Origin: Candidatus Dojkabacteria bacterium
GTDB taxonomy: Bacteria; Patescibacteriota; Dojkabacteria; SC72
DNA: 64,000 nt
Reading direction: 5' to 3'
NCBI GenBank assembly: GCA_016182915.1
Contig: JACPFP010000002.1
Location: forward strand, 155,188 to 219,187
Of this stretch, positions 10,771 through 38,144 are shown piece after piece. The first letter of the stretch is position 1, and every line of letters starts with the position of its first letter. Position numbers and translations under genes: made by a program. Below the pieces are notes generated by a model. That model was not told where the DNA came from, ran no database searches, and worked only from the letters and a program-made list of their open reading frames with translations.

Positions 10771-10772
10771 TA

Positions 10773-11270: not shown

Positions 11271-12097
11271 TGTATTTCTATAATATATCTATTTAAATCA
11301 TAGTAGTTAACTGAGATTTCAATACTGGAGGTAATGGATGAGGAAGCAGGATCTCGATCAAGATCCTTAATCCTTCCGAGAACAAGATAGCTCCCTATCT
11401 TAGGGTCATTTGTTATTACAAAATCGCCATCTGCGACCCCTTTATCAGTACTTATATTCTCGACTGATACCCAATCTCCCTTCCCTATCGCAACTGCTTT
11501 GGATTTCGTCTTTTCCGAAACCAGTCTCTTCAGTTGATCAGTATTTAAACCCTCAATATTAGTTGGTTTAATAACTGAGACCTGGATAAAACTGGATCTA
11601 TTATATGGGAGTTTAACTGTTCCTGAAGACCTATCCAAGCTATCAATAAATCCAACATAATACTGACCATATTGAACAACCCCTCCCTTTTTAACTCCGT
11701 TGTCACTACCTAAATCAATATAGCCAATCTCCAATCCCTCTCCCATGAACATATTTACTTCGGAGTATTTTGATTTCTTTGCAAGAAACCTTTCAGACTT
11801 TTTAAGTTGAGTATTCTCTTCTATTAGGAATGATATGGTATCCAGTTGAGATTTAAGCGTTGAGTTTTCGTCACGAAGTTTTTCATTTTCATTCTTTATC
11901 TCAATTATTTCTGAAAAAAGGGTGAAGTAGTTCTTGACCTGCCTACCGTTAACCACTTGATCGTGAGAAGTATTTGTATATACATACGAAATATAATTCC
12001 TTAGCCAGCTCATCTGAGAGCTTAAAAAAAGAAGAATTACGCTTAGGACAAGAAAGAAAAGTATATATAATTTATTTTCATTCTGATTACTCTCCAT
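11267..12097 (-). CDS. mreC: rod shape-determining protein MreC
   Basis: N-terminal TM helix, coiled-coil region and C-terminal beta domain. 4-bp overlap with mreD, directly downstream of mreB. Confidence 0.7.
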   Translation of the reverse strand: MESNQNENKLYILFFLVLSVILLFLSSQMSWLRNYISYVYTNTSHDQVVNGRQVKNYFTLFSEIIEIKNENEKLRDENSTLKSQLDTISFLIEENTQLKKSERFLAKKSKYSEVNMFMGEGLEIGYIDLGSDNGVKKGGVVQYGQYYVGFIDSLDRSSGTVKLPYNRSSFIQVSVIKPTNIEGLNTDQLKRLVSEKTKSKAVAIGKGDWVSVENISTDKGVADGDFVITNDPKIGSYLVLGRIKDLDRDPASSSITSSIEISVNYYDLNRYIIEIQ

Positions 12098-12113
12098 TCA
12101 ATAGTATATTGTG

Positions 12114-17698: not shown

Positions 17699-18202
17699 AT
17701 GGCAAAATCAGACTCCTCTATTCCCCCAGAATACAACATAAATTCCTTGGCCACTACAATGGACATGCAGGGAAAAGACGTACTATTAATTCAGAACGTT
17801 GAACAATTTAATAAGTATACAGAAGAACTAAAAGCAGGTGTGCTTGTTCTTACTAGTCAAGTAGCGAGCCCAGAATTAGTTAGAGATGATTTCAACTGCG
17901 CCGTTTTTGAGTATCTAGATGGAAATGATCACTTACCTACGATTTCCTCCCCTAAGTATTTACCTAGTTTCGATTACATTCTTTACGCAAAACATCAGGA
18001 AACTATACAACAGGTCTTTATATCTGTTGACCTCACCAAACTTACGGATCAACAGGTAGTCGCAGTCTTGAGCTTAATCTACGACATGTGCTCAGAAGAT
18101 GAAGGAGGAATAGGTAAAAAATTGAAGTTTATTATGCACGATGAGAGAATACCCACCAAAATCCTTTCAATAACAACAACCTTTGATGACACAGAAGAAT
18201 AA
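17699..18202 (+). CDS. hypothetical acidic protein
   Basis: 167-aa ORF with no recognisable domain. Occupies the position where tuf sits in the canonical thrT-tuf-secE arrangement. Confidence 0.35.
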   Translation: MAKSDSSIPPEYNINSLATTMDMQGKDVLLIQNVEQFNKYTEELKAGVLVLTSQVASPELVRDDFNCAVFEYLDGNDHLPTISSPKYLPSFDYILYAKHQETIQQVFISVDLTKLTDQQVVAVLSLIYDMCSEDEGGIGKKLKFIMHDERIPTKILSITTTFDDTEE

Positions 18203-18531: not shown

Positions 18532-18607
18532 GGGCCCATAGTTTCAATTGGTAAAACAACGGTCTCCAAAACCGTATTTTCCCGTTCGAGTCGGGATGGG
18601 CCTGCCA
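18532..18607 (+). tRNA. tRNA-Trp (anticodon CCA)
   Basis: Acceptor GGGCCCA/TGGGCCT, anticodon stem ACGGT/ACCGT with loop CTCCAAA, T-arm TCCCG-TTCGAGT-CGGGA, 3' CCA. Confidence 0.9.
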
Positions 18608-21602: not shown

Positions 21603-22004
21603 ATGGAAGAGAAAAATTTACCAAAGCTATCAGCAGATGCACAGAAAGTTCTTGAAGCTGTAGAGAAAATGACAGTTTTAGAACTTGCAGATCTTGTCAA
21701 AGTAATGGAAGACAAGTTCGGAGTAAGCGCAGCCGCTCCAGTAGCCGTTGCAGCAGCTCCAGCAGCAGCAGCAGAGGAAGTTGAAGAGAAAACAATGTTT
21801 AACATTGTTCTTCAAGATGCAGGTGCAAACAAGATCAGCGTGATCAAGGTTGTAAGAGAGTTGACAGAACTAGGTCTCAAAGAGGCTAAAGATCTCGTTG
21901 ACGCAGGTGCAGGATCCGTTCTTAAGGAGAATGTACAGAAAGATGCCGCTGAGGAAGCAAAGAAGAAGTTTGAGGAAGCAGGTGCTAAGGTTGAACTTAA
22001 GTAG
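21603..22004 (+). CDS. rplL: 50S ribosomal protein L7/L12
   Basis: Ala-rich hinge ([17 protein letters not shown]) and a C-terminal L12 domain. Confidence 0.95.
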
Positions 22005-22028
22005 TTAGCTTTTCAAATGGAAATTGAA

Positions 22029-22054
22029 AGACCGGAGCAATCCGGTCTTTTTTT
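22029..22054 (+). terminator. rho-independent terminator after rplL
   Basis: AGACCGGA-gcaa-TCCGGTCT hairpin followed by TTTTTT. Confidence 0.8.
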
Positions 22055-22171
22055 ACCTCCTAAAATGATTGAAAATATGCCCCTTAAATGCTATAATTAC
22101 GACATAAATTCCTCACTATGCCCTAGGTACTTTTACCTAGAAAAATCAAATTAAATTAGAATTTTTAAAAT

Positions 22172-22828
22172 ATGACAGAACTAACCCAGTGGCTACTCTC
22201 TCATGGTATTTCTATGGCAGTTTTGGAGATATTAGTATTTGTGCCTATCCTCGCCACCCTTGTAAACCTATCCCGATATTTTATTGGGTTTAAATCCTTT
22301 GGAATCTATGCACCAATAATATTAGGTCTTTCATATAGATATACAGGCCTTAGATACGGTTTAATCATAACTCTTCTTGTGGTACTCTCCTCTCTCATTG
22401 GATACTCCATAATGCGAAGGATACGTATGCACTATCTAGCGAGAGTCGCTATAAACTACTTAATTGTTGCCATTATTCTTCTTTTCGGAATTGCGGGATT
22501 AGACAGTCTTGAAATTTTAGGCTTCACAAACTTTGAAAGCATCAATCCCCTCGCCCTTATCTCCATTGCCGCCCTTTCTGACTTCTTTATAAAAATGTAT
22601 GTAAAAAAGAGCATTGCTGCTACAGTTAGAGTTCTCCTCGAAACCGTTCTAATTTCTGTAATAGGATGGGTGTTGATCTCTTCTGAAACAATAATCGGTT
22701 TTATGTTGAGTAATCTATGGATGTTAGGTGCAATACTTCTCTTCAATCTTCTGATTGGTAGATATACAGGACTACGAATCAAAGAATATTTTAGATTCAG
22801 CTTCGTCGTCAAAAATGACAATAAATGA
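22172..22828 (+). CDS. polytopic (approx. 6-7 TM) membrane protein, partner of RimK-like ATP-grasp
   Basis: 218 aa, almost entirely hydrophobic helices. 14-bp overlap with the downstream ATP-grasp gene suggests translational coupling. Confidence 0.6.
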   Translation: MTELTQWLLSHGISMAVLEILVFVPILATLVNLSRYFIGFKSFGIYAPIILGLSYRYTGLRYGLIITLLVVLSSLIGYSIMRRIRMHYLARVAINYLIVAIILLFGIAGLDSLEILGFTNFESINPLALISIAALSDFFIKMYVKKSIAATVRVLLETVLISVIGWVLISSETIIGFMLSNLWMLGAILLFNLLIGRYTGLRIKEYFRFSFVVKNDNK

Positions 22829-24305
22829 ACTAATCCGTTTAAATAAAGAGGTTCTGGGAATTAATAGACGAAACCAGGCTTTCGTTCGTGAGTTTAATCC
22901 TCTATCTGCGAAAGTAATTGCAGATAACAAGATTATAACCAAAAGGGTTTTAGCGAAGGTTGGGATAAAAAGCGCCGAACTATATAAGGTTATTAGAACG
23001 AAAAAGCAGTTGGAATTCCTTGATTGGGATTCAATACCAAATAGTTTTGTTCTTAAACCAAACCAAGGTACAGGTGGTAATGGAATTGTTGTGTTCTACG
23101 GCAAGAAGAAGGGAAAGTACGAATGGATTAGACCAAACGGTACAACAATGGATCAGAAAGACCTGATCCTACATATTGAAAATATCCTTGATGGGAGATT
23201 TTCAATGGGTAATAGGAACGATCTCGCGATCATCGAAGAAAGAATCAAAACAGACAGCACATTAAAACCCTTCACATATAAGGGAGTCCCTGATGTTAGA
23301 GTCATAGTTTTCAATAAGATTCCACTTCTGGCAATGCTAAGACTTCCAACCAAACGATCAAACGGTACTGCAAACCTTCACTCAGGAGCTATATGTGTAG
23401 GAATCGATATTGCCTCTGGAATTACAAGAGAAGGAATGTACTTAAAAAAGAGCCCTATCATTGAGGATACCTATACAAGCACAGATACCACCCTTGATCT
23501 TGAAGATAATATCCCTCTAATAGGTATTCAAATCCCATATTGGAATGAAATACTTGAGATCGCTGTTAAATCCCAGCAGGCAAGCGGATTAGGTTATATA
23601 GGTGTAGATATCGCTTTAGACAAAGAGAAGGGCCCTATGGTGCTTGAAATCAACGCAAGGCCGGGCTTAGGTATACAGGTAGCAAACAAAATCGGATTAA
23701 GAGCCAGATTAGAACGAGTAAAAGGGATTGAAGTTAAGAGTTTGAGACATGGAGTAAGACTTGCAAAGAATATTTTCGGAGGCGAGGTTGAGGAGGAGAT
23801 TGAAAATATCAGCGGTAAGACAGTTGTTAACCTCATAGAAAAGATTCTCCTTTTCCATAAACCAGAGATAGAGATGTCTAAAAAGAAACAGAAAAAAATC
23901 CTTGCTAAAAAGGAAGTCGTTAAAGCAATGCTTGATACCGGAATAATAACCTCACGTATTGACTGGGGAATAGCATCAAGAATTGGATACTTTAAGGCCT
24001 TGGACTTCTTTAGAAAGCTTGGAATTCCTGAGACCTTCCCAACACTCAAAGATGCACAGGATTATATTGATAAAACTGGAAGTGAAAACATGCTGCATCC
24101 TGAAATTATCAGACTCGCTAAAATCAGTGATGAGACTGGAAACCACATCCTTCCCGTAGTAGAGGTAGAGATAAAAATTGCGGGTGAGGTTAAAAAGGTT
24201 GAAATGGTAGTTAGCAGACAACAAGCCATCATATACCCAGTCCTGATAGGGAGAAAAGAGCTGAATAATTACCTTATAGATACAAGTAAAACATTTACAA
24301 ATTAA
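22815..24305 (+). CDS. RimK-like ATP-grasp amidoligase fused to C-terminal retropepsin-like (DTG) aspartic peptidase domain
   Basis: ATG at 22815 (MTINELIRLNKEVLGINRRNQ...). ATP-grasp core motifs (VLKPNQGTGGNGIVV, VRVIVFNKIPLLAMLRLPT, GVDIALDKEKGPMVLEINARPG). The C-terminal ~150 aa carry a DTG motif (AMLDTGIITSRID) in a retropepsin-like context. Confidence 0.7.
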   Translation: MTINELIRLNKEVLGINRRNQAFVREFNPLSAKVIADNKIITKRVLAKVGIKSAELYKVIRTKKQLEFLDWDSIPNSFVLKPNQGTGGNGIVVFYGKKKGKYEWIRPNGTTMDQKDLILHIENILDGRFSMGNRNDLAIIEERIKTDSTLKPFTYKGVPDVRVIVFNKIPLLAMLRLPTKRSNGTANLHSGAICVGIDIASGITREGMYLKKSPIIEDTYTSTDTTLDLEDNIPLIGIQIPYWNEILEIAVKSQQASGLGYIGVDIALDKEKGPMVLEINARPGLGIQVANKIGLRARLERVKGIEVKSLRHGVRLAKNIFGGEVEEEIENISGKTVVNLIEKILLFHKPEIEMSKKKQKKILAKKEVVKAMLDTGIITSRIDWGIASRIGYFKALDFFRKLGIPETFPTLKDAQDYIDKTGSENMLHPEIIRLAKISDETGNHILPVVEVEIKIAGEVKKVEMVVSRQQAIIYPVLIGRKELNNYLIDTSKTFTN

Positions 24306-24328
24306 CCTTAATACTTTAACCTCAGGAT

Positions 24329-25303
24329 ATGGAAAAAGATTTTTTGAAAATAGCCGGGAATGTACATCTCGCATACTACATTGAAGCTGCTGATATCCTT
24401 GGAATCAAGTATGAAGTTATATTTAGAAACCTAACCGCTCGTTTTGAACATCAAGGTAAACACTGGTTTATAAACAATACCGCCCTACCAGTAAATAACG
24501 CACCCAGCTCAAGATTAGCCAGAGGAAAACACTTTGCAAGTAGAATTCTCGATTTAGCAGGTATCCCAGTACCCCAACAAGCTAGTGTTGAGAATGTAGA
24601 GGAAGCAATCTCTTTCTTTAACGAGCATAATGAGGTTGTAGTTAAGCCTTCTCAAAATCTTGGAGGAAAGGGTATATCAATCCTTCCGGCCAATGCAGAG
24701 GATCTATCCAAGGCATACGAGTATGCTAAAGGCTACGATAAACATGGAAAGGTATTAATTGAGAAGTATATCCACGGAGATAATTATAGACTTCTAGTAG
24801 TCGGAGACACAGTCGTTGGTGTTGTAAGGAGGCTTCCTGCCACTATCACAGGCAGTGGTAGTTCAACTATAAAACAGCTAATTGAAGAGAAAAATATAGA
24901 GAGAAAGGCCCGAATGCTCATGCCAATACCTATAGATGAAGAAACAGTTAAACACCTTCAACATAAAGGGTTTACACTAGACACAGTTCTTCCTGCCGGC
25001 GTGATAACAACAGTCAGATCAAACACAAACCTAACAACAGGTGGTACAACTGAAGAGTGCAGTGAGATTGTCCACCCATACTATAAAGATATTGCAGTAA
25101 AGACAATAAAAGCTCTGGATTTGGAGTTCGCAGGAATAGATTTGATTACCAAAGATATCACTACCCCATCCGAATGTGCCGTTAACGAAGTGAATTACAA
25201 CCCAGGACTAAGACTTCACTATAAAGTAGATAAAGGAGAGATTAAAAAGGTTGCCATTCCTATTATGGAATATATTAGAGATCGCTATGCGAAAACGAAG
25301 TAG
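24329..25303 (+). CDS. stand-alone cyanophycin-synthetase-like (CphA G-domain-like) ATP-grasp ligase
   Basis: YRLLVVGDTVVGVVRRLPATITGSGSSTIKQLIEE..., TNLTTGG and AGIDLITKDITTP resemble CphA ATP-grasp motifs. No Mur-ligase domain is present. Confidence 0.65.
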   Translation: MEKDFLKIAGNVHLAYYIEAADILGIKYEVIFRNLTARFEHQGKHWFINNTALPVNNAPSSRLARGKHFASRILDLAGIPVPQQASVENVEEAISFFNEHNEVVVKPSQNLGGKGISILPANAEDLSKAYEYAKGYDKHGKVLIEKYIHGDNYRLLVVGDTVVGVVRRLPATITGSGSSTIKQLIEEKNIERKARMLMPIPIDEETVKHLQHKGFTLDTVLPAGVITTVRSNTNLTTGGTTEECSEIVHPYYKDIAVKTIKALDLEFAGIDLITKDITTPSECAVNEVNYNPGLRLHYKVDKGEIKKVAIPIMEYIRDRYAKTK

Positions 25304-25362
25304 TTCGATCTATCTTGCTCCGCTCTTTTAACTAAATATTTATAACTCAAACCCGTGTTTAT

Positions 25363-26340
25363 ATGCACAACAACTATTTCGAAGTAAGCGCTGAAAACAA
25401 CTTTGAACTTGGATTACAATTAGGAAAACTGTTTAGAGAAAATTTAAATGAGACCTTAAAGGAGGCTCATCTCAATCCTAACTGGGATCAAGTGGTTGAA
25501 CAATCTTCAATGTATCTCAAGAAGACAAAAGATTTGTTCCCACACCTTATTGAAGAACTCAAAGGATATGCTAAAGGAGCAGACGTCGATTTTATGAATT
25601 TATGGGCGCTTAGCCTTGAGGATGAATTATACTTTGAAGAAAAGTGTTCAACAGTGATTACAAACAATGGCATGTTAGTTGGACACAACGAAGACTATAA
25701 GGATGCAGAAGAAAAAGTCTGTATACTTAAAAAAACGATTAAAGGAAAAACAATCCTCGAACTATACTATCTACATACCCTAGGCGGGAATTCAATCTCT
25801 ATAAACTCAAACGGATATATCCACGCAATTGACTCACTTTCACAATCAGATCGTAAAGTCGGAATTCCCAAGAATGTGATTGCAAGATGGTTCTCTGAAA
25901 CATCATCTCCTTCGGATGATTTTCAAAAATTATCTACTTTAGATAGGTCTTCAGGATTTTGTCATAATATAGTAAACATCACAGGAGAAGTAATAACTAT
26001 TGAATCTACTGCCACAAAACAACTGATTGAGACCATAGAAACTCCTTTCGTACATACAAACCACTATTTAACAGACTTAAAGACTTTTGAAGCCAACGAT
26101 AATTCAACCTGCACATTTGAAAGATTCAAAAGTGCAAGAGAAAATATTAAAGAGCAAATGAAAGTTACAGAGATGCAATCACTCCTTTCATTGAATAATA
26201 ATGGTCCTCAGGCTAGCCTCTTTAACGAAAGAACAGTTGGAAGAATGATTATAGATAATACAGAAAGATTGGCGTATATATGGCTAGGTAGAGAAAAGGA
26301 GAAAGGTTGGATTAAATATAATCTCAATTTTATTGTATGA
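25363..26340 (+). CDS. Ntn-hydrolase-like protein (tentatively peptidase C45/acyltransferase-like)
   Basis: A candidate nucleophile Cys in EEKCSTVITNNGMLVGHNEDY is reminiscent of the C45/linear-amide hydrolase family. The family call is tentative. Confidence 0.4.
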   Translation: MHNNYFEVSAENNFELGLQLGKLFRENLNETLKEAHLNPNWDQVVEQSSMYLKKTKDLFPHLIEELKGYAKGADVDFMNLWALSLEDELYFEEKCSTVITNNGMLVGHNEDYKDAEEKVCILKKTIKGKTILELYYLHTLGGNSISINSNGYIHAIDSLSQSDRKVGIPKNVIARWFSETSSPSDDFQKLSTLDRSSGFCHNIVNITGEVITIESTATKQLIETIETPFVHTNHYLTDLKTFEANDNSTCTFERFKSARENIKEQMKVTEMQSLLSLNNNGPQASLFNERTVGRMIIDNTERLAYIWLGREKEKGWIKYNLNFIV

Positions 26341-28024
26341 TAGATATATGAAAACACAGGTACTCCAAGGTGCAAACCTTATAAATACAGTGACAACTGT
26401 AAATATAACCCTTGATACAACTCCAAAAACAGAGTTTATAGAAGAAATCCAGAAGATTCATCCACTCTTTTTAGATGAGTTTATGGTGGAAGGTAAGACG
26501 ATAAGTATACAAACCAAACTCCCCCATCTATGGAAGGAAGCAGCAGTTGCCCTAAATAACTACTCCAACGGAGAATGGAGCTATGACCTAACAAAGTCAT
26601 TCCTATATGAGACACTAATCAAAAAACAAATTCTCTCTATGTCCACCATTCCAATACTGAGAGCAGCCCACGAACTAGGTTATGAAACAACCCAATATTT
26701 TATAGAGGAGGGCTTCACACCTGAAGGAGTTCTTAAAAAGTATAATAGATACTATGCAATTGGCGTAGGACAGGAAACTGAAACTATGATCTCAATAGCA
26801 AGCAGTGGTGATTCCAACCTTGCAAAGATGATTCAGGAGGATAAGTGGCTCACCAATATTATGCTTGACAGATTAAAACTCCCTATTGCTAAATGGGAAC
26901 TAATCCCAAGCAAGGATAGCCTTAAGGAGCTACACGAGAAGTATAGAAAGCCATATGTAATCAAACCTGTCGGTCTCACAGGCGGACACGGCGTTACAAC
27001 AAACATAGAAAGCCTTGATCAAGCTAAATCTGCCTACGATGTTGCAAATAAATCTATTGAATCAAAGGAGAGAAAAGATTGGCAGAAAAAGATAATGATA
27101 CAGGAACAAGTTTCTGGAGAAGACTACAGGCTTCTCGTTATCAATGGAGTCTTGGAGATTGTAACAAAAAGAATACCTGCCTTCGTAGTCGGTAACGGAA
27201 GCTCAACCATAGAAGAGTTAATAGTAGAAACTAATAAAGACCCACGAAGAGACACTTCCCTCCCAACCCATATCTTAAAACCAATCGTTATAGACGACCA
27301 GCTTAAAAGCTTCCTTAAAGAACAGGATCTCAATCTAAAGCATATCCCTAAAGCAGACGAGAAAGTATATGTAAGAAAGGTAGCAAGTATGAGTCAGGGA
27401 GGAATTACTGAAGACTTCACAGACCAGGTAAGTAAACAGATTAGATATATTGTAGAATCCCTTGCTAAATCCCTGCACGCCTATGCACTAGGGGTAGATA
27501 TCATCTGCCAGGACATATCAAAACCATTAACAATGGAAAACGGGTCAATCATTGAGTGCAACACAATGCCAGAATCATATCTTAATGCCTTCCCTGTAAT
27601 TGGAAAACAGTATCCTAATATAGGAAAAATCGTAGTAGAGGGATTAATCGGAAAGAAACCTAAAACAAAGAAATATGTATATATTGGAAAAAATATGAAG
27701 AAATTTGAGACTTTCCTTGCATTAAATACGGATGAGTCGGAAGATAGAGTTGGAATATATAGAAACGGAGAAGTAATTATTAATAACGAAGTTATAAACA
27801 GGTCGGTAGAAACTTGGAGAGCTATAGAGGCTCTTAAACTTAACTCATCCCTCTCTGTAATAGTCCTCCACTATCTATCGTTTGATGAGGTAGAAGAGTA
27901 TGGACTGGGTTTTGACTATACAGATGCAGTGGTTATCGAAAAAGAGCTTGAATCAACGAAACAATATTCCACAATACAAGGTCTTTCAAACATGGGAGTT
28001 GTTACAAAGGTGGAGACTATTTAG
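26333..28024 (+). CDS. cyanophycin-synthetase-like protein with N-domain plus ATP-grasp G-domain, lacking Mur-ligase M-domain
   Basis: DYRLLVINGVLEIVTKRIPAFVVGNGSSTIEELIVETNKDPRRDTS... matches the CphA G-domain GDGxSTIxELI...DPRRG pattern. An ~200-aa N-terminal domain is also present. The protein is 563 aa against ~900 aa for CphA. The track start is TTG at 26333, with an alternative ATG at 26348. Confidence 0.7.
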   Translation: MYDRYMKTQVLQGANLINTVTTVNITLDTTPKTEFIEEIQKIHPLFLDEFMVEGKTISIQTKLPHLWKEAAVALNNYSNGEWSYDLTKSFLYETLIKKQILSMSTIPILRAAHELGYETTQYFIEEGFTPEGVLKKYNRYYAIGVGQETETMISIASSGDSNLAKMIQEDKWLTNIMLDRLKLPIAKWELIPSKDSLKELHEKYRKPYVIKPVGLTGGHGVTTNIESLDQAKSAYDVANKSIESKERKDWQKKIMIQEQVSGEDYRLLVINGVLEIVTKRIPAFVVGNGSSTIEELIVETNKDPRRDTSLPTHILKPIVIDDQLKSFLKEQDLNLKHIPKADEKVYVRKVASMSQGGITEDFTDQVSKQIRYIVESLAKSLHAYALGVDIICQDISKPLTMENGSIIECNTMPESYLNAFPVIGKQYPNIGKIVVEGLIGKKPKTKKYVYIGKNMKKFETFLALNTDESEDRVGIYRNGEVIINNEVINRSVETWRAIEALKLNSSLSVIVLHYLSFDEVEEYGLGFDYTDAVVIEKELESTKQYSTIQGLSNMGVVTKVETI

Positions 28025-29408
28025 AAACCCTCTTCTTCTTAATCATCCCCGAAACTTTTAAGCTTCCGAATATTAGCGCAGCAAGGCCAACGGTAATTCC
28101 TGCAAACATAAGAGTTTTTTTAGGAACCTTATTTATCATTCCTATAGGATTTTTATTATTTTCCCTTTTGTATTCATCAAACTTCTTCAAAAGATAACTC
28201 TGACCAGGGAAATATGGGAGTCTATTGATCATATCCCTCACTACCCTCCTATTACTTACCCTCTTTCCCTTTACACTCACATACTGTGCATATATATCGT
28301 ATGTGCGTTTTGCAATATCTGACCAGTCCCAGTTGTCAACTTTATGCCTTGCTCTTTTACAAATATCTGTATAATCATTCTGTGAAAGATCGGCAATCTT
28401 TCTAACACTTTTCGCGAACTCTTTTGGAGATGCCTTCCTATCTATCCATATACCCACAGAGCTATCAACAAGCTCGTCAATCGTCTCGTTTGAAAGCCCT
28501 ACGATAGGTTTTCCAGCAGCCAACGCCTCGATAACCGACAAAGCCTGCACCTCAGCAATAGAGGCTGATACGAAAATATGTGATTTTTCCAAATACCCCG
28601 GTATTTTATCCGGGCTAACTCCATCTATAATCTCTACATTTCTATACTTTGAAGCCATCTTCCTGAAACTTTTCTCGTAATCCTCGAAAAGGAAACGTCC
28701 AATTAGAGTCAATCTGAAGTTCTTTGGGAAATATTTCATAACTTTCAAGAGATATTCCTGATTTTTTCTCTTTGAAATTGATCCTACGAAGATGAGATTT
28801 CTTTCCTTTTTTTTCTGAGATTGTAGTTCCAAAGAATTTAATCTTTCAAGAAACCTACCATTCGGAACAATATGCATATTTCCTGTGTATCCATAGTTAC
28901 GAAGTTCATTGGAAGCCACCTGGTTTAAAGCTATGACAGCAGTGCAATTCTTTAGATAATCCTGAAAATACTGCTTAAAGATCATCTCATTCATCATCTT
29001 GTAAACAAAGGAATCTGCTGATACATCAAAGAAACTTGCTATTTTGGTTGGGAGATAGTGAGAGGTATAGAAATATGGGATATTGTTATTGACAGCCCAA
29101 ATCTGCCCAATGAACGGTGCTAACCATCCACTATGCGAATGAACAATATCAGGTTTAAAGCTATCCAGAAAATCAAAGAAGAATTGGACTGTGTTAGGAG
29201 TGAATACTCCTAGCTCTCCACTTTCATAATCTCCACCCTGTAGTGTAACCTTAAGCATCCCATCCTCTTTATATATCCTGTTCTCTGTACCTGTGAAAAC
29301 AAGTGCTGTCTCTGCATATTCTGACATTGCCTGTGAAATTTCCATTGCAACCCTCGTCTCCCCTCCTAGGGTCTCTTCGGTTCCTGCAGCTAAATAGACA
29401 ACTTTCAT
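28017..29408 (-). CDS. GT4 family glycosyltransferase with C-terminal TM anchor
   Basis: GT-B fold motifs (EVQALSVIEALAAGKPIV) and a C-terminal hydrophobic helix LMFAGITVGLAALIFGSL. Confidence 0.85.
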   Translation of the reverse strand: MKVVYLAAGTEETLGGETRVAMEISQAMSEYAETALVFTGTENRIYKEDGMLKVTLQGGDYESGELGVFTPNTVQFFFDFLDSFKPDIVHSHSGWLAPFIGQIWAVNNNIPYFYTSHYLPTKIASFFDVSADSFVYKMMNEMIFKQYFQDYLKNCTAVIALNQVASNELRNYGYTGNMHIVPNGRFLERLNSLELQSQKKKERNLIFVGSISKRKNQEYLLKVMKYFPKNFRLTLIGRFLFEDYEKSFRKMASKYRNVEIIDGVSPDKIPGYLEKSHIFVSASIAEVQALSVIEALAAGKPIVGLSNETIDELVDSSVGIWIDRKASPKEFAKSVRKIADLSQNDYTDICKRARHKVDNWDWSDIAKRTYDIYAQYVSVKGKRVSNRRVVRDMINRLPYFPGQSYLLKKFDEYKRENNKNPIGMINKVPKKTLMFAGITVGLAALIFGSLKVSGMIKKKRVSK

Positions 29409-30235
29409 TACTTAGTATTAATAAACTCTTTAATAACATTGTATGATTTCTCCGGCTCAAAGGAAAGATGTCTGTGATTAAGAGCATTTATAATAACGGG
29501 CTTAACATGGAGCATATCTGCAATCTCCTGGGTAAACTGCTTGAAATACCACGGTTCATTAGCATTATATATAACCAAACTCTCCCCTTTGAAGTTATTA
29601 AGTCCCTTCTGATCTAGATCCTTCAGTGTAAAAACCGGTGTCATACTACTCTCAACGTCCCCATTCATTGCGTCTAAAAATATGAGATTTATATAGTACC
29701 TTGCCTTAGACAGATACAATCTCGAAGTGAGAAGCTCCAAAGCATATATAAGTTTAATATTAAATCTTAAGATAGCCAAAGGTATCCTTAACTTCCTAAA
29801 ACCATCGTAAACAGAAGCATTAAGACTTAATCGGGACTTCGTTTCAAAGATATTCTTCCTGCTGTGAAAACCCGATACAACAATATTCTTGCTTGGATTA
29901 ATATACCCCATTGATATAGCATGCAAGATGAATGTAACACCAAGAGAATACCCTGCTACACCGTAATCCTTAAATTCAAAAGAGTTTATGAATTTGGAGA
30001 TAAAAAGAACATATGAATCAAAATCTTTGACCTTAAGCAACTGTTTTGACTTACTCCCCCATCCAGGAAGATTTGCTCGTATAACTCTAATACCATCATC
30101 TTTCATAAGTTTGGTAATCCCATCAAAAGCAATACTTGATGATCCCCAAGGCGGTATAAAAAAGAGCGGGAATCCCTCCCCCTCATCTAGGTATGTAATC
30201 TCAATTCCATCAATCTTTCTACTTAGGTACTCCAT
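29408..30235 (-). CDS. alpha/beta hydrolase fold protein
   Basis: GxSxG nucleophile elbow (GYSLG). 275 aa, cotranscribed with the GT4 gene. Confidence 0.75.
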   Translation of the reverse strand: MEYLSRKIDGIEITYLDEGEGFPLFFIPPWGSSSIAFDGITKLMKDDGIRVIRANLPGWGSKSKQLLKVKDFDSYVLFISKFINSFEFKDYGVAGYSLGVTFILHAISMGYINPSKNIVVSGFHSRKNIFETKSRLSLNASVYDGFRKLRIPLAILRFNIKLIYALELLTSRLYLSKARYYINLIFLDAMNGDVESSMTPVFTLKDLDQKGLNNFKGESLVIYNANEPWYFKQFTQEIADMLHVKPVIINALNHRHLSFEPEKSYNVIKEFINTK

Positions 30236-30322
30236 ATTCCTCAGTATATCACAACATTAACAGTTCATCAGGATACTGCTATAATGACAATTATAGCTAT
30301 TTAATATAACTAAACATACCTA

Positions 30323-31264
30323 GTGAAATACCTAATCCTTGATAAAAAGCAGAGAATACATATAGAGAATAAGTACTCATATGTACTAACTAGAATAGTC
30401 GAAGAACTGGAAAAGATGGGAGCAGAATATAAAGTGGCATACAATGACGAGATTGAAGTAGCATTTATAGAAGGAAAGACTACAATAAGTGTACAGGGTG
30501 AAAATATAGAGAATTTTTCTCACATAATGTTCAGAGGAATGAGGTTAGACAGGCAGATTGAATATGAAACACGAAAGATCATTGTAGACTATATTGAGCA
30601 ATATAATATCTCAAACCCAAGCAAAGCCATTAAGGTTCAAAATCTTAAAGCCATAAAAAGGACTCATTTCTACGATAAGATATTCATAACCCACCTATGT
30701 GTACAGAATGGAGTTGCAATAATGAACACACTTTATAGGCCTATGGGTAACTACTCCGTGGAACATTCGCCTCTTAAATACCCTATGATTGTAAAACAGT
30801 ACGCAGGAGAGAACGATATAAGAGTGATTGAAGGAAAGGAGACCGTTAAAAAGAATGTCTTTCTCGTAAATAGCCCTGAGGAATTCCAGCAGGAGCACCT
30901 TAGAGATAGAAATCTCTCTGAATACATAATTCAGGAATTCATACCCTCAGGTGAAGACTTCAGAGTATTCGTTTCCAAAGGAAAAGCCCATTCAGGTTTT
31001 GGAAGAAAAGCTACCACCAACTTCATGACTGTAAATGCCGGTGAATATGCCAAACTCGACTTAGAGAAAAGGTCAGATCTCAAAGAATTTGCCCAGAAGG
31101 TTTCCTCAGTTTTCGGAGCAGACTTCATCGCAGTTGATATGATGATGAAAAATGGAAAACCCGTGCTACAAGAAATTAGCTTCAATCCAGGCTTTAAAGC
31201 CTTTGAAACCAAAACCGATGGTGAGTTTATTAATATGGCAAAGGTAATAATCGAATCTCTTTAA
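30323..31264 (+). CDS. ATP-grasp family ligase (RimK/GshB-like)
   Basis: GTG start. ATP-grasp features (DFRVFVSKGK..., ADFIAVDMMMKNGKPVLQEISFNPG). Confidence 0.7.
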   Translation: MKYLILDKKQRIHIENKYSYVLTRIVEELEKMGAEYKVAYNDEIEVAFIEGKTTISVQGENIENFSHIMFRGMRLDRQIEYETRKIIVDYIEQYNISNPSKAIKVQNLKAIKRTHFYDKIFITHLCVQNGVAIMNTLYRPMGNYSVEHSPLKYPMIVKQYAGENDIRVIEGKETVKKNVFLVNSPEEFQQEHLRDRNLSEYIIQEFIPSGEDFRVFVSKGKAHSGFGRKATTNFMTVNAGEYAKLDLEKRSDLKEFAQKVSSVFGADFIAVDMMMKNGKPVLQEISFNPGFKAFETKTDGEFINMAKVIIESL

Positions 31265-32418
31265 ATCCCTAATCTCTTGAAAATCTGGTTAACCTTCTCA
31301 GGATCTAATACTAGTTTTGCCTTTGGAATAAGGCCATCTTCAACCCAGGAGACCTGCTTCATACTAATCTTTCCAGCATACAGCTTTTCGTAGAGGGAGG
31401 AATCCTTCGCAATTGCCTTCCTAACTCTCCTATATCCCCTAAAATACACGACATCCTTATAATATAGTCCTGGTAGTGATGTATCGCCTAACCCCCTTTT
31501 AACGCGGTATGCGAAGTCAAATGCGAGATTCTTAGCAAGAAACGCTGTCATTGCATTATATAGGTCCCTGAAACTTACAGCCTCCCCCCAATACAATAAC
31601 CAACTAAAGGTTGCTTTCCTCTTCAAGGCATCAAAAGTGAGGACTTTCATAAGTTCCTCATTATATGTTGCCAATCCCTCTTCAATATCCTGATATTCCG
31701 GCAAATTGGATTTATATAGAACGGGTACTCCAGAGTGGATTCCGTTATATGACCTTAATACATGCGTCCCAATCTCATGAACAATCGATTTCCTAAGGTC
31801 GATTTTGGAGCGGGAGATATCCCCAGAAAGCAGTACTTCCTTCCTCTTTACCCCTACTTTCATAGCCTCATCTGCAATTCTTCCAGACTTAGCAACGGTC
31901 CAATCAGAAAACCCCAATTCACCTAGAAATTTAGTCATAATCCTCTCTATTTCAGCATATTCATACTCTCTTCCCTCTTTCTTCTGTTCTACAAGGTCGT
32001 AGTTTGAAACTTTTCCCCTTAAAACGAGAGATGCATTTTTGAATAGTCTTGCTGATGGTCTACCAAACCTCTTCCTAGAGATCTCTGTAATTAACCGATT
32101 ATCCCCTACTGCATTAAGCATATCGTTAACCTCTGATTTAGATTCTATGAGTTTCAGATAGAATTCTGAGATTCTTGGATCAACGTCAGAAATACTGGTT
32201 ATATCAGCTAACTCACGAAGGAGAGAGGAATTAACATTCTTAACAGGCTTATATTTAAAGTTAGGACTGTATGTCTCCGATTCAATAAACTTCTGCTTCT
32301 CCTCATCCAAGTTTATAGGCGTAAATACGTATGAAGTTGGGAGTTTAAGAAGATCTAGTTTCGCAACAACCTCTTCCTGTGTAACAACTCTTTTTCCCCT
32401 TCTACTAAATATAAACAC
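31261..32418 (-). CDS. DUF1704/MATCAP-like QEGLA-motif putative metallocarboxypeptidase
   Basis: EEGLATY (a QEGLA-like motif) and an HExxxH-type motif VHEIGTHVL. 4-bp convergent overlap with the ATP-grasp gene. Confidence 0.65.
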   Translation of the reverse strand: MFIFSRRGKRVVTQEEVVAKLDLLKLPTSYVFTPINLDEEKQKFIESETYSPNFKYKPVKNVNSSLLRELADITSISDVDPRISEFYLKLIESKSEVNDMLNAVGDNRLITEISRKRFGRPSARLFKNASLVLRGKVSNYDLVEQKKEGREYEYAEIERIMTKFLGELGFSDWTVAKSGRIADEAMKVGVKRKEVLLSGDISRSKIDLRKSIVHEIGTHVLRSYNGIHSGVPVLYKSNLPEYQDIEEGLATYNEELMKVLTFDALKRKATFSWLLYWGEAVSFRDLYNAMTAFLAKNLAFDFAYRVKRGLGDTSLPGLYYKDVVYFRGYRRVRKAIAKDSSLYEKLYAGKISMKQVSWVEDGLIPKAKLVLDPEKVNQIFKRLGI

Positions 32419-32464
32419 GACTTTATTGCTATAAAATAATTTCTATACGTTATTTTACCATAAT

Positions 32465-33721
32465 CTACCAATCTAAATCAGAGAGGAAGGCTCCAAGAAG
32501 AAACCAAACCCAGGGTGTCATGAAAAAATCGTATGTTATATTTCCGACGACGATGATTGAAAAGAGGCCCAATATAAGCGGAGACTTCCTTTTAAGTAAC
32601 TCAAGACCTAGGGAAATCACTACAAAACCAAAGGATAGAATCCCAATAATTCCCCCTTCTGCAAGCATTTTGGCATATACGGAATGTGGGGTAGCAAACT
32701 GGACCCTACTATCTATATTTTCCCTGTAATATTGAGGGAAATTCCCTATTCCAATTCCTAACACAGGATGTTTAAGAAAGATTTTAATAGATTGAATCCA
32801 GTAGTTTATATGTTCATTCGCTGAAAAATCGGCAAGGGTCAACCTTGTTAAAGCAAGAGGAAGGAATGAGGAATACACACGGCCTTTAACACCATCCTTA
32901 CGCATTATGAATCTATGACCATAGTAGACAATGAATCCTACTATTAATGCTAAATAGCCCGTTCTTGATGCCGTTAGAAGAATCATAGCAAGAGATAAAA
33001 TAAGAACAGATGTCGATAGAAGCATACTCTTTCTCTTATTAATCAGATCTACAGAAAAAACTGAAATCATAGCAAGAAAAACAGCAAATACATTAGTATC
33101 AATCATTAATGAACTAGGCCTGAGAAACAGTCCATTATCGGCAGTCCTAATATTGAATGCTGAGGCAGAAACAAAACCGCCTTTATCAAATACGCTAATA
33201 AACCATCCTAAATCCTGATTCATTCGATAATCCACATACTGCGTTAATCCAACAATAATCAGGATGAGAGCAGAAAAAAGTAATCCTTTCTTAAAAGTAT
33301 CACTGTCGCTCTTTTTAGGTAGTACAATTCCGACAAGGAATAGAGAGATGAGTATAGAATAATATCCTAACCCCATAATACTCTCATTAAGATTGTAAGA
33401 GGTCAGTAAAGATATAGCGGAAGCTAGGAGAAAGACACCTAAAGAGATAAATACAACCTTATACCGGATGAAAGCGGTGACAACAGCATCGAAAAGAGTA
33501 CGGAGACTTTTTCGGCAATATATCAAGTAGATTGCTAATAGAACCAAATATACAACTATCCATAATACTTTAGTCAGAGTTCTTGGACTTATCTCTCCTT
33601 CTGCTAAAATATCAACTATAAATGAGAGCCTTCCGGAAATAAGAATAAATAGAAATACGGATAGTATATATCCCATATTATGATGATATCTCTTTAGTAA
33701 ATACTCTATCTCCACTTGCAA
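32465..33721 (-). CDS. O-antigen ligase/polymerase-like (Wzy_C) polytopic membrane protein
   Basis: >10 TM helices. LTASRTGYLALIVG and HSVYAKMLAEGGIIG match the Wzy_C family R/H motifs. The true start is probably the internal Met near 33676. Confidence 0.6.
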   Translation of the reverse strand: MQVEIEYLLKRYHHNMGYILSVFLFILISGRLSFIVDILAEGEISPRTLTKVLWIVVYLVLLAIYLIYCRKSLRTLFDAVVTAFIRYKVVFISLGVFLLASAISLLTSYNLNESIMGLGYYSILISLFLVGIVLPKKSDSDTFKKGLLFSALILIIVGLTQYVDYRMNQDLGWFISVFDKGGFVSASAFNIRTADNGLFLRPSSLMIDTNVFAVFLAMISVFSVDLINKRKSMLLSTSVLILSLAMILLTASRTGYLALIVGFIVYYGHRFIMRKDGVKGRVYSSFLPLALTRLTLADFSANEHINYWIQSIKIFLKHPVLGIGIGNFPQYYRENIDSRVQFATPHSVYAKMLAEGGIIGILSFGFVVISLGLELLKRKSPLILGLFSIIVVGNITYDFFMTPWVWFLLGAFLSDLDW

Positions 33722-34691
33722 TCAGTTCAAGAGCCATACCAGTACCCTTAGCCACACAGAACATAGGTTCATCTGCAACATGAGCAGGTACACCCGTTGC
33801 CTTGGAGAAGAGCTTATCCAGATTTTTCAAGAGTGACGTTCCTCCGCTCATAACCATCCCTCTATCGATTATATCAGCGGCTAACTCTGGAGGAGTTTTC
33901 TCCAAAACCTCTTTTATAGCGCCAATAATCTTTGATAGTGCAAATTTCAAAGCCTCCGCAATCTCATTTGAATCAATCTTAATTGATTTTGGCATTCCCC
34001 CTGCTACATCCCTACCCTTTATCTCCATCTCCTTAGGATTCTGAACCTTAATTGCGGAACCAATTTTCATCTTAATACTCTCTGCTGTCTGCTCTCCAAT
34101 CAAGATTCCTCTCTTCCTTCTCATGTATGCAATTATGGATTCATTTAGGGCATCTCCAGCAACGCGTAGAGAGTTGAATTCAACAATACCGTCAAGTGAT
34201 ATAACTGCAATCTCTGCTGTACCACCACCAAGGTTAACAATCATATTTCCAGAAGAGGTTTCAATAGGTAGGCCTGCACCAAGGGATGCCAGAAGAGGTT
34301 CAGGAAGAAGACTTACTTTTCTCGCCCCTGCTCCCATAGCAGCCTTTAATACAGCTCTTTCCTCAACAGATGTAATTCCTGCAGGCACACTAATCATTAC
34401 TTCAGGCTTGAAGAACTTTGATGTTCCCAATGCCTTATTTAAAAAGTATTTTAACAACGCCTCTGTTACTCTGGAATCTGCAATTACACCGCTTCTAAGA
34501 GGCCTTTTAGCAACGATATTATCTGGAGTTTTACCTATCATTTCTTTTGCCTGCTGCCCTACCGCTATCACTGTGAACTTATTCACATCGATAGCTACAA
34601 CTGTAGGCTCCATAAGGACAATACCTTCTCCCTCAACAAAAACTATTGAGTTAGCAGTTCCTAGATCTATTCCTACCTTTTTTCCAAACAT
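33678..34691 (-). CDS. second MreB-like actin homolog (paralog)
   Basis: VGIDLGTANSIVFV..., NLGGGTAEIAVISL and MSGGTSLLKNL motifs. Confidence 0.85.
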   Translation of the reverse strand: MFGKKVGIDLGTANSIVFVEGEGIVLMEPTVVAIDVNKFTVIAVGQQAKEMIGKTPDNIVAKRPLRSGVIADSRVTEALLKYFLNKALGTSKFFKPEVMISVPAGITSVEERAVLKAAMGAGARKVSLLPEPLLASLGAGLPIETSSGNMIVNLGGGTAEIAVISLDGIVEFNSLRVAGDALNESIIAYMRRKRGILIGEQTAESIKMKIGSAIKVQNPKEMEIKGRDVAGGMPKSIKIDSNEIAEALKFALSKIIGAIKEVLEKTPPELAADIIDRGMVMSGGTSLLKNLDKLFSKATGVPAHVADEPMFCVAKGTGMALELIASGDRVFTKEISS

Positions 34692-34731: not shown

Positions 34732-36204
34732 TTAGTATTTAATCAACATAGCTTCTTTCATCTGATCAGCCACTCCTCTAGCTATCCCCCTTACCTTCTT
34801 ACTCCCTTCGAGCGCCTTTCTTAGTAATTCTTCCTTCATACCTTCAGCAACCTTTCTCCTCTCTCTTATTGGGGTTAGGAACTCATTCATTACTTTGAAA
34901 AGAATCTCTTTAACCTCAACATCCCCTATCCTCCCTTCTCTATATCTCCTTTTTAACTCTTCTACCTGCTGCTTATCCTCATTAAAAAGGTCGTGGTATG
35001 CAAAGGCGATATTACCTTCGACAGTTCCCTTATCCGTTGCGCTCTTCCTATTTGGATCTGTATATACACTAAAGACCTTCTTTCTAAGGACCTCTTCACT
35101 ATCTGAAAGGTATATAGCATTATTTAAACTCTTCCCCATCTTCGAGTTCCCATCAATACCTGGAACATTGGTTGCAACTCCATACAGTCCTTCAGGCTGG
35201 TGTAAGTACTTCACTTTATATGTACTATTAAACTTCCTTACAATCTCTCTTGTATCTTCAATCATAGGGGCCTGATCCTTTCCTACGGGAACCAAATCCG
35301 CGTTAACACACAATATATCTGCAGCCTGGTGAATAGGATATACAAAGAAACCAAGTGGCGTGGACTCCTCCATATTATTCTGTTTAATCTCAGTTTTAAT
35401 AGTTGGGTTATGCATAATCTGCTGAACAGAGGTGAAGTTTGCCAAATACATAAATATTTCATGTACCTCAGGTACTTCAGACTGAATATACACAGTACTC
35501 TTATCGAAATCTATTCCTACAGCATAGTAGTCACAGAGAAGTTCAAGAATACTTTCTTTAACCATCTGAGGATTATCTGCATTGTCACTAAGGGCATGGA
35601 TATTTGCAATGAGGATAAACTGCTCGTACTCATCTTGTAAGGCAACCCTATTTTTAAGAGTGCCCATATAATGACCTACATGCATCTTTCCAGTTGGCCT
35701 ATCACCAGTTAAGATCCTCTTCTTTCCACTTACAGAACGCTCTGATGGCGCGGTGAATTTTCCAATAGTCCCTCTTGTGATAGTTAAAAGATCCTTTGGA
35801 GCAAGTTGAATATCAGTAAATTCATCTCCAGCACCTCCATTAATTACCTTTCTCTCCAGTAGTGATTCATCCATATAGTATTTTAGTGATGGATGGTAAA
35901 CCCCAACTGCGCCAACGGTAAATCCGAAATTGTTCTTTACCTCTTCAGGGGTTGCCATGTTTAAACTCTTAACTCCCATCAGCTTCTTCAGTTCATTGGA
36001 TAGGATTTTCCTGTCATCCCTTCTATGCACACCAACGAATCCTTTTTCAGTTTTAAAGATAAGGGTAGAGACTCCATCCTCGAATGATATATTTACCGCT
36101 CTAACTCCTTCTTCAACTGTGAATACGGCTCCATGCTTAACAAAGCTTACTTCCTTTAAGCCTAACTCCTTAACCCTATTTTGTAATACCTCTAAGTTAC
36201 TCAT
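34732..36204 (-). CDS. trpS: tryptophanyl-tRNA synthetase with N-terminal YbaK/ProX-like deacylase domain
   Basis: C-terminal class I core (TGDRPTGKMHVGHYMG HIGH region; KMGKS). The N-terminal ~170 aa resemble the YbaK trans-editing domain (TLIFKTEKGFVGV..., GFTVGAVGVY, VINGGAGD). Confidence 0.85.
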   Translation of the reverse strand: MSNLEVLQNRVKELGLKEVSFVKHGAVFTVEEGVRAVNISFEDGVSTLIFKTEKGFVGVHRRDDRKILSNELKKLMGVKSLNMATPEEVKNNFGFTVGAVGVYHPSLKYYMDESLLERKVINGGAGDEFTDIQLAPKDLLTITRGTIGKFTAPSERSVSGKKRILTGDRPTGKMHVGHYMGTLKNRVALQDEYEQFILIANIHALSDNADNPQMVKESILELLCDYYAVGIDFDKSTVYIQSEVPEVHEIFMYLANFTSVQQIMHNPTIKTEIKQNNMEESTPLGFFVYPIHQAADILCVNADLVPVGKDQAPMIEDTREIVRKFNSTYKVKYLHQPEGLYGVATNVPGIDGNSKMGKSLNNAIYLSDSEEVLRKKVFSVYTDPNRKSATDKGTVEGNIAFAYHDLFNEDKQQVEELKRRYREGRIGDVEVKEILFKVMNEFLTPIRERRKVAEGMKEELLRKALEGSKKVRGIARGVADQMKEAMLIKY

Positions 36205-38068: not shown

Positions 38069-38144
38069 TGGCGCACCCGGCCGGAATCGAACCGACAACC
38101 TGCTCGTTAGGAGTGAGCTGCTCTTCCAATTGAGCTACAGGTGC
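38069..38144 (-). tRNA. tRNA-Arg (anticodon CCT), CCA encoded
   Basis: Reverse complement gives GCACCTG...GCTCA-CTCCTAA-CGAGC...TTCGATT...CGGGTGC-G-CCA. Confidence 0.85.

Follow-up and report, generated by a model that had tools for sequence, protein, structure and literature searches.

The window analysed here is a 64 kb stretch of DNA from Candidatus Dojkabacteria (candidate division WS6, Patescibacteria), and its nearest proteins are from Dojkabacteria as well. Our subject is the segment at 22172-34691, directly 3′ of the ribosomal protein gene rplL, which encodes ATP-grasp ligases, peptidases, a seven-transmembrane (7TM) protein and a second MreB. Profile searches confirmed the eleven open reading frames (ORFs) and the family assignments of a first-pass annotation, and sequence reading and folding confirmed the terminator that it had placed after rplL. 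Two start codons were revised, to ATG at 22815 (not TTG at 22755) and to ATG at 26348; both agree with the genes called on public contigs. On balance we favour the reading that the segment is the Dojkabacteria-wide form of an amidoligase-peptidase system of the Rlo/Rim type, which was inherited vertically and not acquired as an island. As part of this reading, and with the same restrained confidence, we take the core to be a five-gene operon with its own promoter and a converging mreB2-MATCAP unit, to which the subclade of the window adds four genes. The names CphS and CphL stand for the short CphA-like ligase (24329-25303) and the long one (26348-28024). The features are as follows, with lengths in amino acids (aa) or nucleotides (nt) and TM for transmembrane.

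21603..22004, plus strand: rplL (L7/L12; PF00542, PF16320), end of the secE-nusG-rplKAJL block; context, outside the system
22029..22053, plus strand: intrinsic terminator 3′ of rplL, GACCGGA-gcaa-TCCGGTC, then T7
22069..22097, plus strand: promoter-like site of the ligase operon, TTGAAA-17-TGnTATAAT with an extended -10; consensus match 11/12
22172..22828, plus strand: 7TM membrane protein, 218 aa; PF14402 (7TM_transglut) 52.5 bits; overlaps the next gene by 14 nt
22815..24305, plus strand: fusion protein, 496 aa, of an RloC-like ATP-grasp ligase (about 22866-23723) and a RimB/RloA-like retropepsin (about 23916-24302); PF14397, TIGR02291, PF05618-like
24329..25303, plus strand: CphS, the G domain alone of cyanophycin synthetase; TIGR02068 218.8 bits, model positions 204-471
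25363..26340, plus strand: C45 Ntn hydrolase/acyltransferase; NF040521 127.8 bits (cut-off 85), PF03417
26348..28024, plus strand: CphL, CphA2-like, 558 aa, with N domain, ATP-grasp G domain and truncated inactive M domain as assigned with AlphaFold2 and Foldseek
28017..29408, minus strand: GT4 glycosyltransferase with a C-terminal TM anchor (residues 432-450); PF00534 83 bits, PF13439
29408..30235, minus strand: alpha/beta-hydrolase-fold protein, weakly assigned, GYSLG motif; PDB haloperoxidase/arylesterase 5e-5, no Pfam match
30257..30285, plus strand: promoter-like site before the RimK-like gene, TTAACA-17-TGnTATAAT, 11/12; a consensus match alone
30323..31264, plus strand: RimK-like ATP-grasp ligase, last gene of the ancestral five-gene operon; PF08443 39 bits (cut-off 21)
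31261..32418, minus strand: MATCAP/DUF1704 metallocarboxypeptidase homologue; PF08014 108.7 bits (cut-off 27)
32465..33676, minus strand: Wzy/O-antigen-ligase-like membrane protein with at least nine TM segments; PF04932 (Wzy_C) 53.8 bits
33678..34691, minus strand: MreB2, a second MreB paralogue; PF06723 437 bits; immediately upstream of the MATCAP gene in relatives

For the survey of relatives, one genome per GTDB species was scanned, which gave 80 loci, and all window proteins were compared with these in a tblastn matrix. About 28 species-level loci are from Dojkabacteria, including the complete 1.04-Mb genome CP129478.1. The taxon labels on many records of metagenome-assembled genomes are unreliable; some clearly patescibacterial contigs carry the label 'Gammaproteobacteria' or 'Saccharibacteria'. 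In every Dojkabacteria locus with enough flank (about 28) we found the order nusG-rplK-rplA-rplJ-rplL-7TM-fusion-CphS-CphL-RimK, with the genes for MATCAP and MreB2 on the opposite strand and then a gene for a PEGA-domain protein. The fusion proteins of these loci are 58-82% identical to that of the window. In most of them rplL stands immediately before the 7TM gene, and in seven (L002/L007, L006, L010, L015, L017, L029) 0.5-3.5 kb lie in between.

The linkage of rplKAJL to rpoBC is exceptionally conserved (PMC8046335). The first-pass annotation had noted that rpoBC is missing after rplL, and this is borne out: queries with Escherichia coli RpoB and RpoC match nothing in the 64-kb window or in the 85 fetched loci (1.37 Mb in total). 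It had further taken the segment for an inserted island and had named the presence of the same genes after rplL in all relatives as what would speak against this. The gene-neighbourhood comparison finds exactly that arrangement, as the core follows rplL in essentially all sampled Dojkabacteria, and the GC content is not shifted (0.377 in the segment versus 0.379 and 0.386 in the flanks). Therefore we reject the island for the core. The break between rplKAJL and rpoBC goes back to a rearrangement that is ancestral and class-wide, not to an insertion, and the core appears, with the reservation that applies to our reading as a whole, to have come down by vertical inheritance, its place after rplL being fixed. 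The segment has no tRNA gene at its borders; the nearest are at 18532-18607 (3.5 kb upstream) and 38069-38144 (3.4 kb downstream). Profile scans matched none of its ORFs to a family of integrases or transposases; repeats at the flanks were outside the search.

Four genes of the segment do have the distribution of insertions. The C45 gene stands between CphS and CphL (about 1 kb) and the Wzy-like gene separates mreB2 from the MATCAP gene (about 1.25 kb), each in loci L001, L005 and L006 only according to the tblastn matrix. The genes for GT4 and the alpha/beta hydrolase are inserted together between CphL and RimK on the opposite strand (about 2.3 kb); they are always adjacent and occur in L001, L002/L007, L005 and L006 only. 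These four genes are clade-specific insertions, and the sole ones in the segment. The first-pass annotation had built its idea of glycan attachment on the GT4 and Wzy-like proteins. Both are confined to the nearest relatives of the window and missing from the core system elsewhere, and because most Dojkabacteria members lack them we place the sugar genes, as a late addition, outside the core mechanism. A horizontally acquired island of about 12 kb, which pushed rpoBC away and puts a glycan-linked nonribosomal peptide on the cell surface or on a protein, would be in keeping with the missing rpoBC, with the interleaved GT4, Wzy-like, C45 and alpha/beta-hydrolase genes as real insertions relative to other Dojkabacteria, and with the name 'sugar-transfer associated' which PF14397 bears in Pfam. 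However, this explanation does not fit a core which about 28 species-level relatives share in position, at 58-82% identity, and which has the GC content of its flanks; nor does it fit the lack of a bordering tRNA and of integrase or transposase matches, or the absence of the sugar genes from most members. We give it extremely little weight.

The genomes are about 1 Mb in size, yet all sampled Dojkabacteria keep the roughly 8 kb of the system, which argues for a central role in these cells. Dojkabacteria are uncultured and probably host-dependent, and the system is presumably central to such cells.

The transcriptional arrangement is also shared. About 20 Dojkabacteria loci have a GC-rich hairpin with a T-run at the corresponding place between rplL and the 7TM gene. 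The five plus-strand genes of typical Dojkabacteria are separated by -14 to +36 nt, with the RimK-like gene starting -1 to 13 nt after the CphL gene in relatives. On the other strand the gap from mreB2 to the MATCAP gene measures 0-39 nt in most loci, and the stop codons of the two converging units meet or overlap. From these gaps we predict that mreB2 and the MATCAP gene form a two-gene unit which is co-transcribed class-wide. In the window the RimK-like gene is cut off from the operon by the GT4 insertion and has its own promoter-like site upstream. A scan with Rfam returned tRNAs alone and no other RNA element, and the anti-phage defence models of PADLOC gave no match (0) among ten proteins.

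We also observed that the sequence TCGACA-N17-(A)GTATAAT recurs just 3′ of the rplL terminator in many Dojkabacteria (for example L012 at 9225-9342; the corresponding spacer in the window is 22005-22171). It could give a class-specific promoter consensus for Dojkabacteria.

The first two genes of the operon relate the system to rloABC. The fusion protein matches PF14397 (ATPgrasp_ST) with 218.4 bits (cut-off 31.4) and TIGR02291 over nearly its full length with 289.5 bits, just below the cut-off of 314.2. Its ligase half is 38-41% identical to proteobacterial orthologues in rloABC-type operons, which encode a retropepsin, a transglutaminase-7TM protein and an ATP-grasp ligase. A Grimontia locus with scores of 122 bits for RloA, 354 for RloB and 532 for TIGR02291 corresponds to the rloABC operon described in Pseudomonas aeruginosa (Lormand et al. 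2025, mBio). RloA and RimB cut runs of at least eight Glu. An rloA triple mutant is defective in cell shape, in beta-lactam sensitivity and in its tolerance of hypo-osmotic conditions, and deletion of rloB or rloC suppresses these defects (PMC12239564). In Pseudomonas the lack of the proteases is toxic only when RloB and RloC are present, and the phenotypes include hypo-osmotic lysis. The same study connected the system with tolerance of antibiotics, biofilm formation and cell shape, left the biochemistry open, and placed 96% of the RloB matches of its survey in Proteobacteria (PMC12239564).

The 7TM protein of the window aligns to positions 314-507 of the 508 of the RloB model, with 38.8 bits versus a cut-off of 900. 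A Pfam scan gave no Transglut_core match in it; the protein consists of the 7TM module alone. The retropepsin half of the fusion protein scores 25.9 bits against PF05618, just under the cut-off of 27, and 36.2 bits against the RloA3 model (cut-off 210). Used as a profile, this region retrieves the RloA-type structures 9g59 (8e-6) and 9g58 (1e-5) as well as 2pma from Legionella (1e-5). Among 28 orthologues D374, T375, G479 and R480 are invariant (the latter two within an I-G-R motif) and G376 is found in 24. The AlphaFold2 model of the fusion protein (pLDDT 83) has a helical insert of about 50 aa after the DTG motif; with this model Foldseek returned generic ATP-grasp folds alone, and the retropepsin domain was established by profile search instead. 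The catalytic motifs are intact, and by analogy to RimB and RloA the domain may cleave poly-glutamate. Since none of the 496 residues lies in a hydrophobic segment that could serve as TM segment or signal peptide, the fusion protein should be cytoplasmic.

Because rplJL is so close, one might think of a RimK/RimB-like modification of the C-terminus of a ribosomal protein. There is homology to RimK and RimB, and the genes adjoin a ribosomal-protein operon in most Dojkabacteria. But a terminator sets the cluster apart as its own transcription unit, the module lies away from ribosomal genes in Microgenomates and other Patescibacteria, and the main ligase is of the RloC clade (TIGR02291, 289 bits) rather than of RimK (47 bits). 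Moreover the membrane partner is obligatory, and L7/L12 ends non-acidic with ...VELK. We consider ribosomal tagging very unlikely.

The ligase-retropepsin protein was then used as query against 1.84 billion cluster representatives (a library without taxonomy), which gave 1,566 relatives. Pfam domains were scanned in the 58 proteins longer than 512 aa among the 150 nearest cluster representatives. In 46 of these ATPgrasp_ST is joined to MATCAP and in five to the 7TM module; five have a detectable retropepsin, and two also have a transglutaminase core. Examples are P0250 (ligase-retropepsin-MATCAP), P0370 (transglutaminase-7TM-ligase) and P0355 from Oscillatoria (7TM-ligase). Retropepsin motifs are found in the linker of many ligase-MATCAP fusions, although the regular-expression survey was crude and serves as an indication only. 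The MATCAP homologue of the window aligns over nearly its full length with 45 fused MATCAP domains at 27-30% identity.

Gene contexts point in the same direction. In other Patescibacteria a PKD-7TM protein directly precedes an ATP-grasp-retropepsin-MATCAP triple fusion (L087, 3436-7377), and in L088 (1870-10678) three further genes for ATP-grasp proteins and a second one for MATCAP (575 aa) come after a PKD-7TM protein and an 800-aa triple fusion. Microgenomates have a 7TM gene, then ligase::retropepsin, then one or two RimK-like genes. In an unclassified patescibacterium (L034) the order is 7TM, ligase::retropepsin and CphS, and the other strand carries a MATCAP gene. These domain fusions and shared contexts in other genomes indicate that the 7TM protein, the RloC-type ligase, the retropepsin and MATCAP are one recurring functional unit, as far as sequence comparison goes. 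The additional ATP-grasp ligases are a frequent extension of this unit, and the extracellular domain of the 7TM protein varies: it is transglutaminase-like, PKD or lacking. The first-pass annotation had proposed a system of ligases plus peptidases, and this idea held up, as the fusions elsewhere join 7TM, ATP-grasp, retropepsin and MATCAP. Natural fusions are direct genomic evidence that the product of the ligase is the substrate of the peptidase, and likewise for a coupling of the process to the membrane; they bear on the biochemical question that the Rlo study in Pseudomonas left open.

Two side observations concern these relatives. In L034 two ORFs for LAGLIDADG homing endonucleases (231-755 and 1900-2553) are located upstream of the 7TM-ligase module and may sit in rRNA introns. 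P0251 (688 aa, from a Logan contig) combines ATP-grasp-retropepsin with a YdjC-like carbohydrate deacetylase (PF04794, 126.6 bits), a hint of sugar or envelope chemistry.

The four ligases are not housekeeping enzymes of the Ddl, GshB or PurD/PurK type, as their scores with the hidden Markov models are 10- to 20-fold below those equivalog cut-offs; on this the first-pass annotation was right. The two CphA-like ORFs score 226.7 and 218.8 bits against TIGR02068 (CphA1), versus a cut-off of 850. CphS finds the G domain of CphA1 (2e-38) and GshAB (7e-30) in the PDB. CphL is identical to HYV12_01200 from Dojkabacteria, and its AlphaFold2 model (pLDDT 89.8, pTM 0.84) has CphA2 (7ta5) as the best Foldseek match over the full length (E 3e-37, TMq 0.72, TMt 0.69, about 597 columns). 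CphA2 lengthens a peptide at its C-terminus via an acyl-phosphate mechanism, and the key residues of StCphA2 were mapped from that work (PMC10273328). Conserved in CphL are R261, D316, R343 and S349, the equivalents of StCphA2 R308, D362, R389 and S395, and the ExN site E403-x-N405. In all 27 CphL orthologues I, T, S or V, and never an acidic residue, is found at the place of StCphA2 D212, whose partner in a salt bridge is the cyanophycin arginine; a Mur-type P-loop (GxxGKT) is absent at the aligned position. The model and alignment suggest that CphL is a CphA2-like chain extender which probably does not make Arg-decorated cyanophycin. The non-acidic D212 equivalent, the change of N393 to Ser and the absence of a Mur-type P-loop make CphL an unlikely maker of canonical cyanophycin.

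These data bear on the possibility of a cyanophycin-like storage polymer. CphS or the RimK-like enzyme would make the building block, the CphA2-like enzyme would polymerise it, and the retropepsin and MATCAP would remobilise it, so that an auxotrophic symbiont has a reserve of amino acids. The full CphA2 architecture of CphL with its four conserved StCphA2 equivalents agrees with this, as does the similarity of CphS to the G domain of CphA1 (2e-38). The residues which mark the canonical polymer disagree, since D212 is replaced in 27 of 27 orthologues and N393 by Ser, and the Mur-type P-loop is missing. Furthermore there is neither a cyanophycinase nor an isoaspartyl dipeptidase among the annotated ORFs of the window, and a coupled 7TM protein is foreign to cyanophycin loci. 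In the literature we found nothing specific on cyanophycin in the candidate phyla radiation (CPR). A storage polymer appears clearly improbable to us.

Alternatively the four enzymes, as ligases of the L-amino-acid-ligase type, could make a small free oligopeptide (osmolyte, signal or antibiotic), with peptidases for maturation or self-protection and the 7TM protein as exporter. CphS and CphL fall in a clade with GshAB and N-acetylglutaminylglutamine synthetase, the number of extra ATP-grasp genes differs between Patescibacteria, as stepwise assembly would lead one to expect, and the Rlo mutants have osmotic phenotypes. Yet the closest characterised relatives, RimK and CphA, are iterative C-terminal extenders and not dipeptide ligases; the relatives of MATCAP and the retropepsin act on protein tails or long poly-Glu runs; and PF14402 is not known to act in transport. 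We regard a small peptide as unlikely.

The last ligase resembles RimK at the level of the PF08443 domain, not at that of the family model. The RimK-like ORF scores 51.7 bits with TIGR00768 and the fusion protein 47 bits (cut-off 143.4), and RimK of Pseudomonas syringae (7qys) is matched with 1e-4.

The two genes on the opposite strand are a peptidase and an actin-like protein. The MATCAP homologue matches human MATCAP (7z5g) with 1e-14, and the motifs HEIGTH (HE.GTH, HExxxH) and EEGLA are kept at 90% or more in 22 orthologues. Against the TIGR02421 equivalog it scores 130, below the cut-off of 338.65. MATCAP/TMCP enzymes are also deglutamylases; they remove C-terminal Tyr/Glu and shorten poly-Glu chains (PMC10499314). 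By analogy we predict a C-terminal carboxypeptidase acting on Tyr/Glu tails. In the literature nothing specific was found on DUF1704/MATCAP together with ATP-grasp in bacteria. That the MreB at 33678 is a second copy, as the first-pass annotation said, follows from the canonical mreB-mreC-pbp2 operon elsewhere in the window (8767-13169, with mreB at 12114-13169).

Ligases and a MATCAP-type carboxypeptidase might even run a reversible C-terminal tail code on a cytoskeletal or envelope protein, with MreB2 or a partner of it as candidates, and the CphA2-like enzyme might also make a new polyamino acid. This we consider a distinctly long shot. If true, it would be an equivalent among prokaryotes, and perhaps the origin in evolution, of the tyrosination/polyglutamylation cycle of tubulin (TTL/TTLL versus MATCAP). 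MreB2, MreB1 and L7/L12 were inspected as obvious tail substrates, and their sequences lend no support to any of them; MreB2 ends non-acidic and L12 ends with VELK.

For the Rlo/Rim-type system which we favour, we suggest the following steps, by analogy to the characterised relatives. The four cytoplasmic ATP-grasp enzymes would activate a C-terminal carboxylate as acyl-phosphate and add amino acids or dipeptides in succession. The product would be an alpha-linked chain, probably rich in Glu/Asp, either free or on the C-terminus of a protein or peptide. Chain building could be docked at the membrane via the translationally coupled 7TM partner. The fused retropepsin would make internal cuts in the chain, as RimB and RloA do in poly-Glu, and the MATCAP homologue would trim it from the C-terminus in the manner of eukaryotic MATCAP/TMCP. 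Endo- and exopeptidase would in this way limit or recycle the chain. The physiological output probably relates to the cell envelope or cell shape. This step is the weakest; it fits with the class-wide pairing of mreB2 with the MATCAP gene and with the Rlo phenotypes of Pseudomonas.

Several observations weigh against this reading. N393, which is essential in StCphA2, is an invariant Ser in CphL. The RimK-like protein has the motif QEIS..PGF (residues about 285-295), in which Ser takes the place of the Asn that binds Mg in ExN; at least 90% of 24 aligned sequences share this Ser. Because this conserved Ser replaces the Asn, its activity is in doubt, and the protein may be catalytically altered, inactive or a noncatalytic partner. 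The retropepsin domain has Met, Phe or Leu two positions ahead of the catalytic Asp, where RloA has K46, a Lys that contacts Glu. The C-termini of MreB2 vary (KEISS, NKSIT, NKGYN, RDFRR) and are neither acidic nor conserved at the tip. Also the amino-acid specificity is proposed from distant homologues alone, at 17-24% identity to solved enzymes, and the link to envelope or shape comes from gene adjacency and the Pseudomonas phenotypes. Product, substrate and target of the system are putative.

The remainder of the window holds some further genes which we mention in passing. At 34732-36204 (minus strand) a tryptophanyl-tRNA synthetase carries an N-terminal editing domain of the YbaK/ProX type (PF04073, 65.9 bits, residues 24-141) followed by PF00579, which is unusual for this enzyme. 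A second synthetase with an extra editing-like domain is the arginyl-tRNA synthetase at 49857-52463 (minus strand, 868 aa), in which a B3/4 domain lies N-terminally (PF03483, 78 bits, residues 70-198), with the fold of the editing module of the phenylalanyl-tRNA synthetase beta subunit; the gene adjoins four tRNA-Arg genes. The 1620-aa ORF at 58486-63348 (minus strand) has no Pfam match at E <= 1e-3. Upstream of secE-nusG a 167-aa ORF without Pfam match lies between tRNA-Thr(GGT) and tRNA-Trp (17699-18202, plus strand), where E. coli has tufB; in L002 a 168-aa gene, likewise without Pfam match, is found at the corresponding position upstream of rpmG-nusG.

How does the system compare with known ones? 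With Rlo it shares three families, namely the TIGR02291/PF14397 ATP-grasp ligase (about 40% identity), the PF14402 7TM protein and the PF05618 retropepsin with DTG. In contrast to Rlo, the 7TM protein of Dojkabacteria lacks the transglutaminase domain of RloB, and the retropepsin is cytoplasmic and fused to the C-terminus of the ligase, whereas RloA is a separate protein, secreted with a signal peptide. The gene order is 7TM and then ligase::peptidase instead of rloA-rloB-rloC, and Dojkabacteria add three ATP-grasp ligases, the MATCAP peptidase and MreB2. The pair RimK-RimB (rimABK, poly-glutamylation of S6) also combines a cytoplasmic ATP-grasp ligase with a cytoplasmic retropepsin that trims poly-Glu, here in one polypeptide; unlike there, the Dojkabacteria ligases score far below the RimK cut-off, a membrane partner is present and nothing marks S6 as target. 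CphL has the N, G and truncated M architecture of CphA2 (PDB 7ta5, 8fxh/8fxi) and keeps its catalytic and several substrate-contact residues. It differs in sequence (about 21% identity), in the loss of the acidic Arg-binding residue and in N393, which is Ser; the Dojkabacteria context is without cyanophycinase, and the host is a non-cyanobacterial CPR organism.

In eukaryotes, MATCAP/TMCP1-2 (KIAA0895L/KIAA0895) and TTL/TTLL offer a parallel, since an ATP-grasp enzyme adds C-terminal residues and a PF08014 peptidase of the MATCAP type removes them. The present system is, in contrast, bacterial and without tubulin substrate; its MATCAP homologue is paired with an actin-like MreB paralogue and in many relatives fused to the ligase. 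A larger relative of the system is found in the patescibacterial loci L087 and L088 (for example EKD49309.1), with the same families, the 7TM gene before the ligase and extra ATP-grasp genes downstream. Unlike Dojkabacteria they have MATCAP fused to the ligase and PKD domains on the 7TM protein, and they have no CphA-like ligases, MreB2 or linkage to rplL.

None of the families is new, each being known or predicted, and there is genetic work on the three-gene Rlo core. A study by Iyer, Abhiman, Burroughs and Aravind (2009, Mol Biosyst) reportedly predicted amidoligase/peptidase neighbourhoods; PF14397, PF14402 and PF05618 are said to derive from it, and two papers cite it for these families. 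In the literature consulted, which does not include Iyer et al. 2009, three aspects are undescribed: the form of the system in Patescibacteria, where the 7TM protein has no transglutaminase domain and ligase and retropepsin are fused; the addition of CphA2-like, G-domain-only CphA-like and RimK-like ligases together with MATCAP; and the conserved pairing of a MATCAP gene with a second MreB. The locus puts bacterial MATCAP homologues into the context of ATP-grasp ligases, and it suggests a CphA2-like polymerase from which canonical cyanophycin is unlikely to come.

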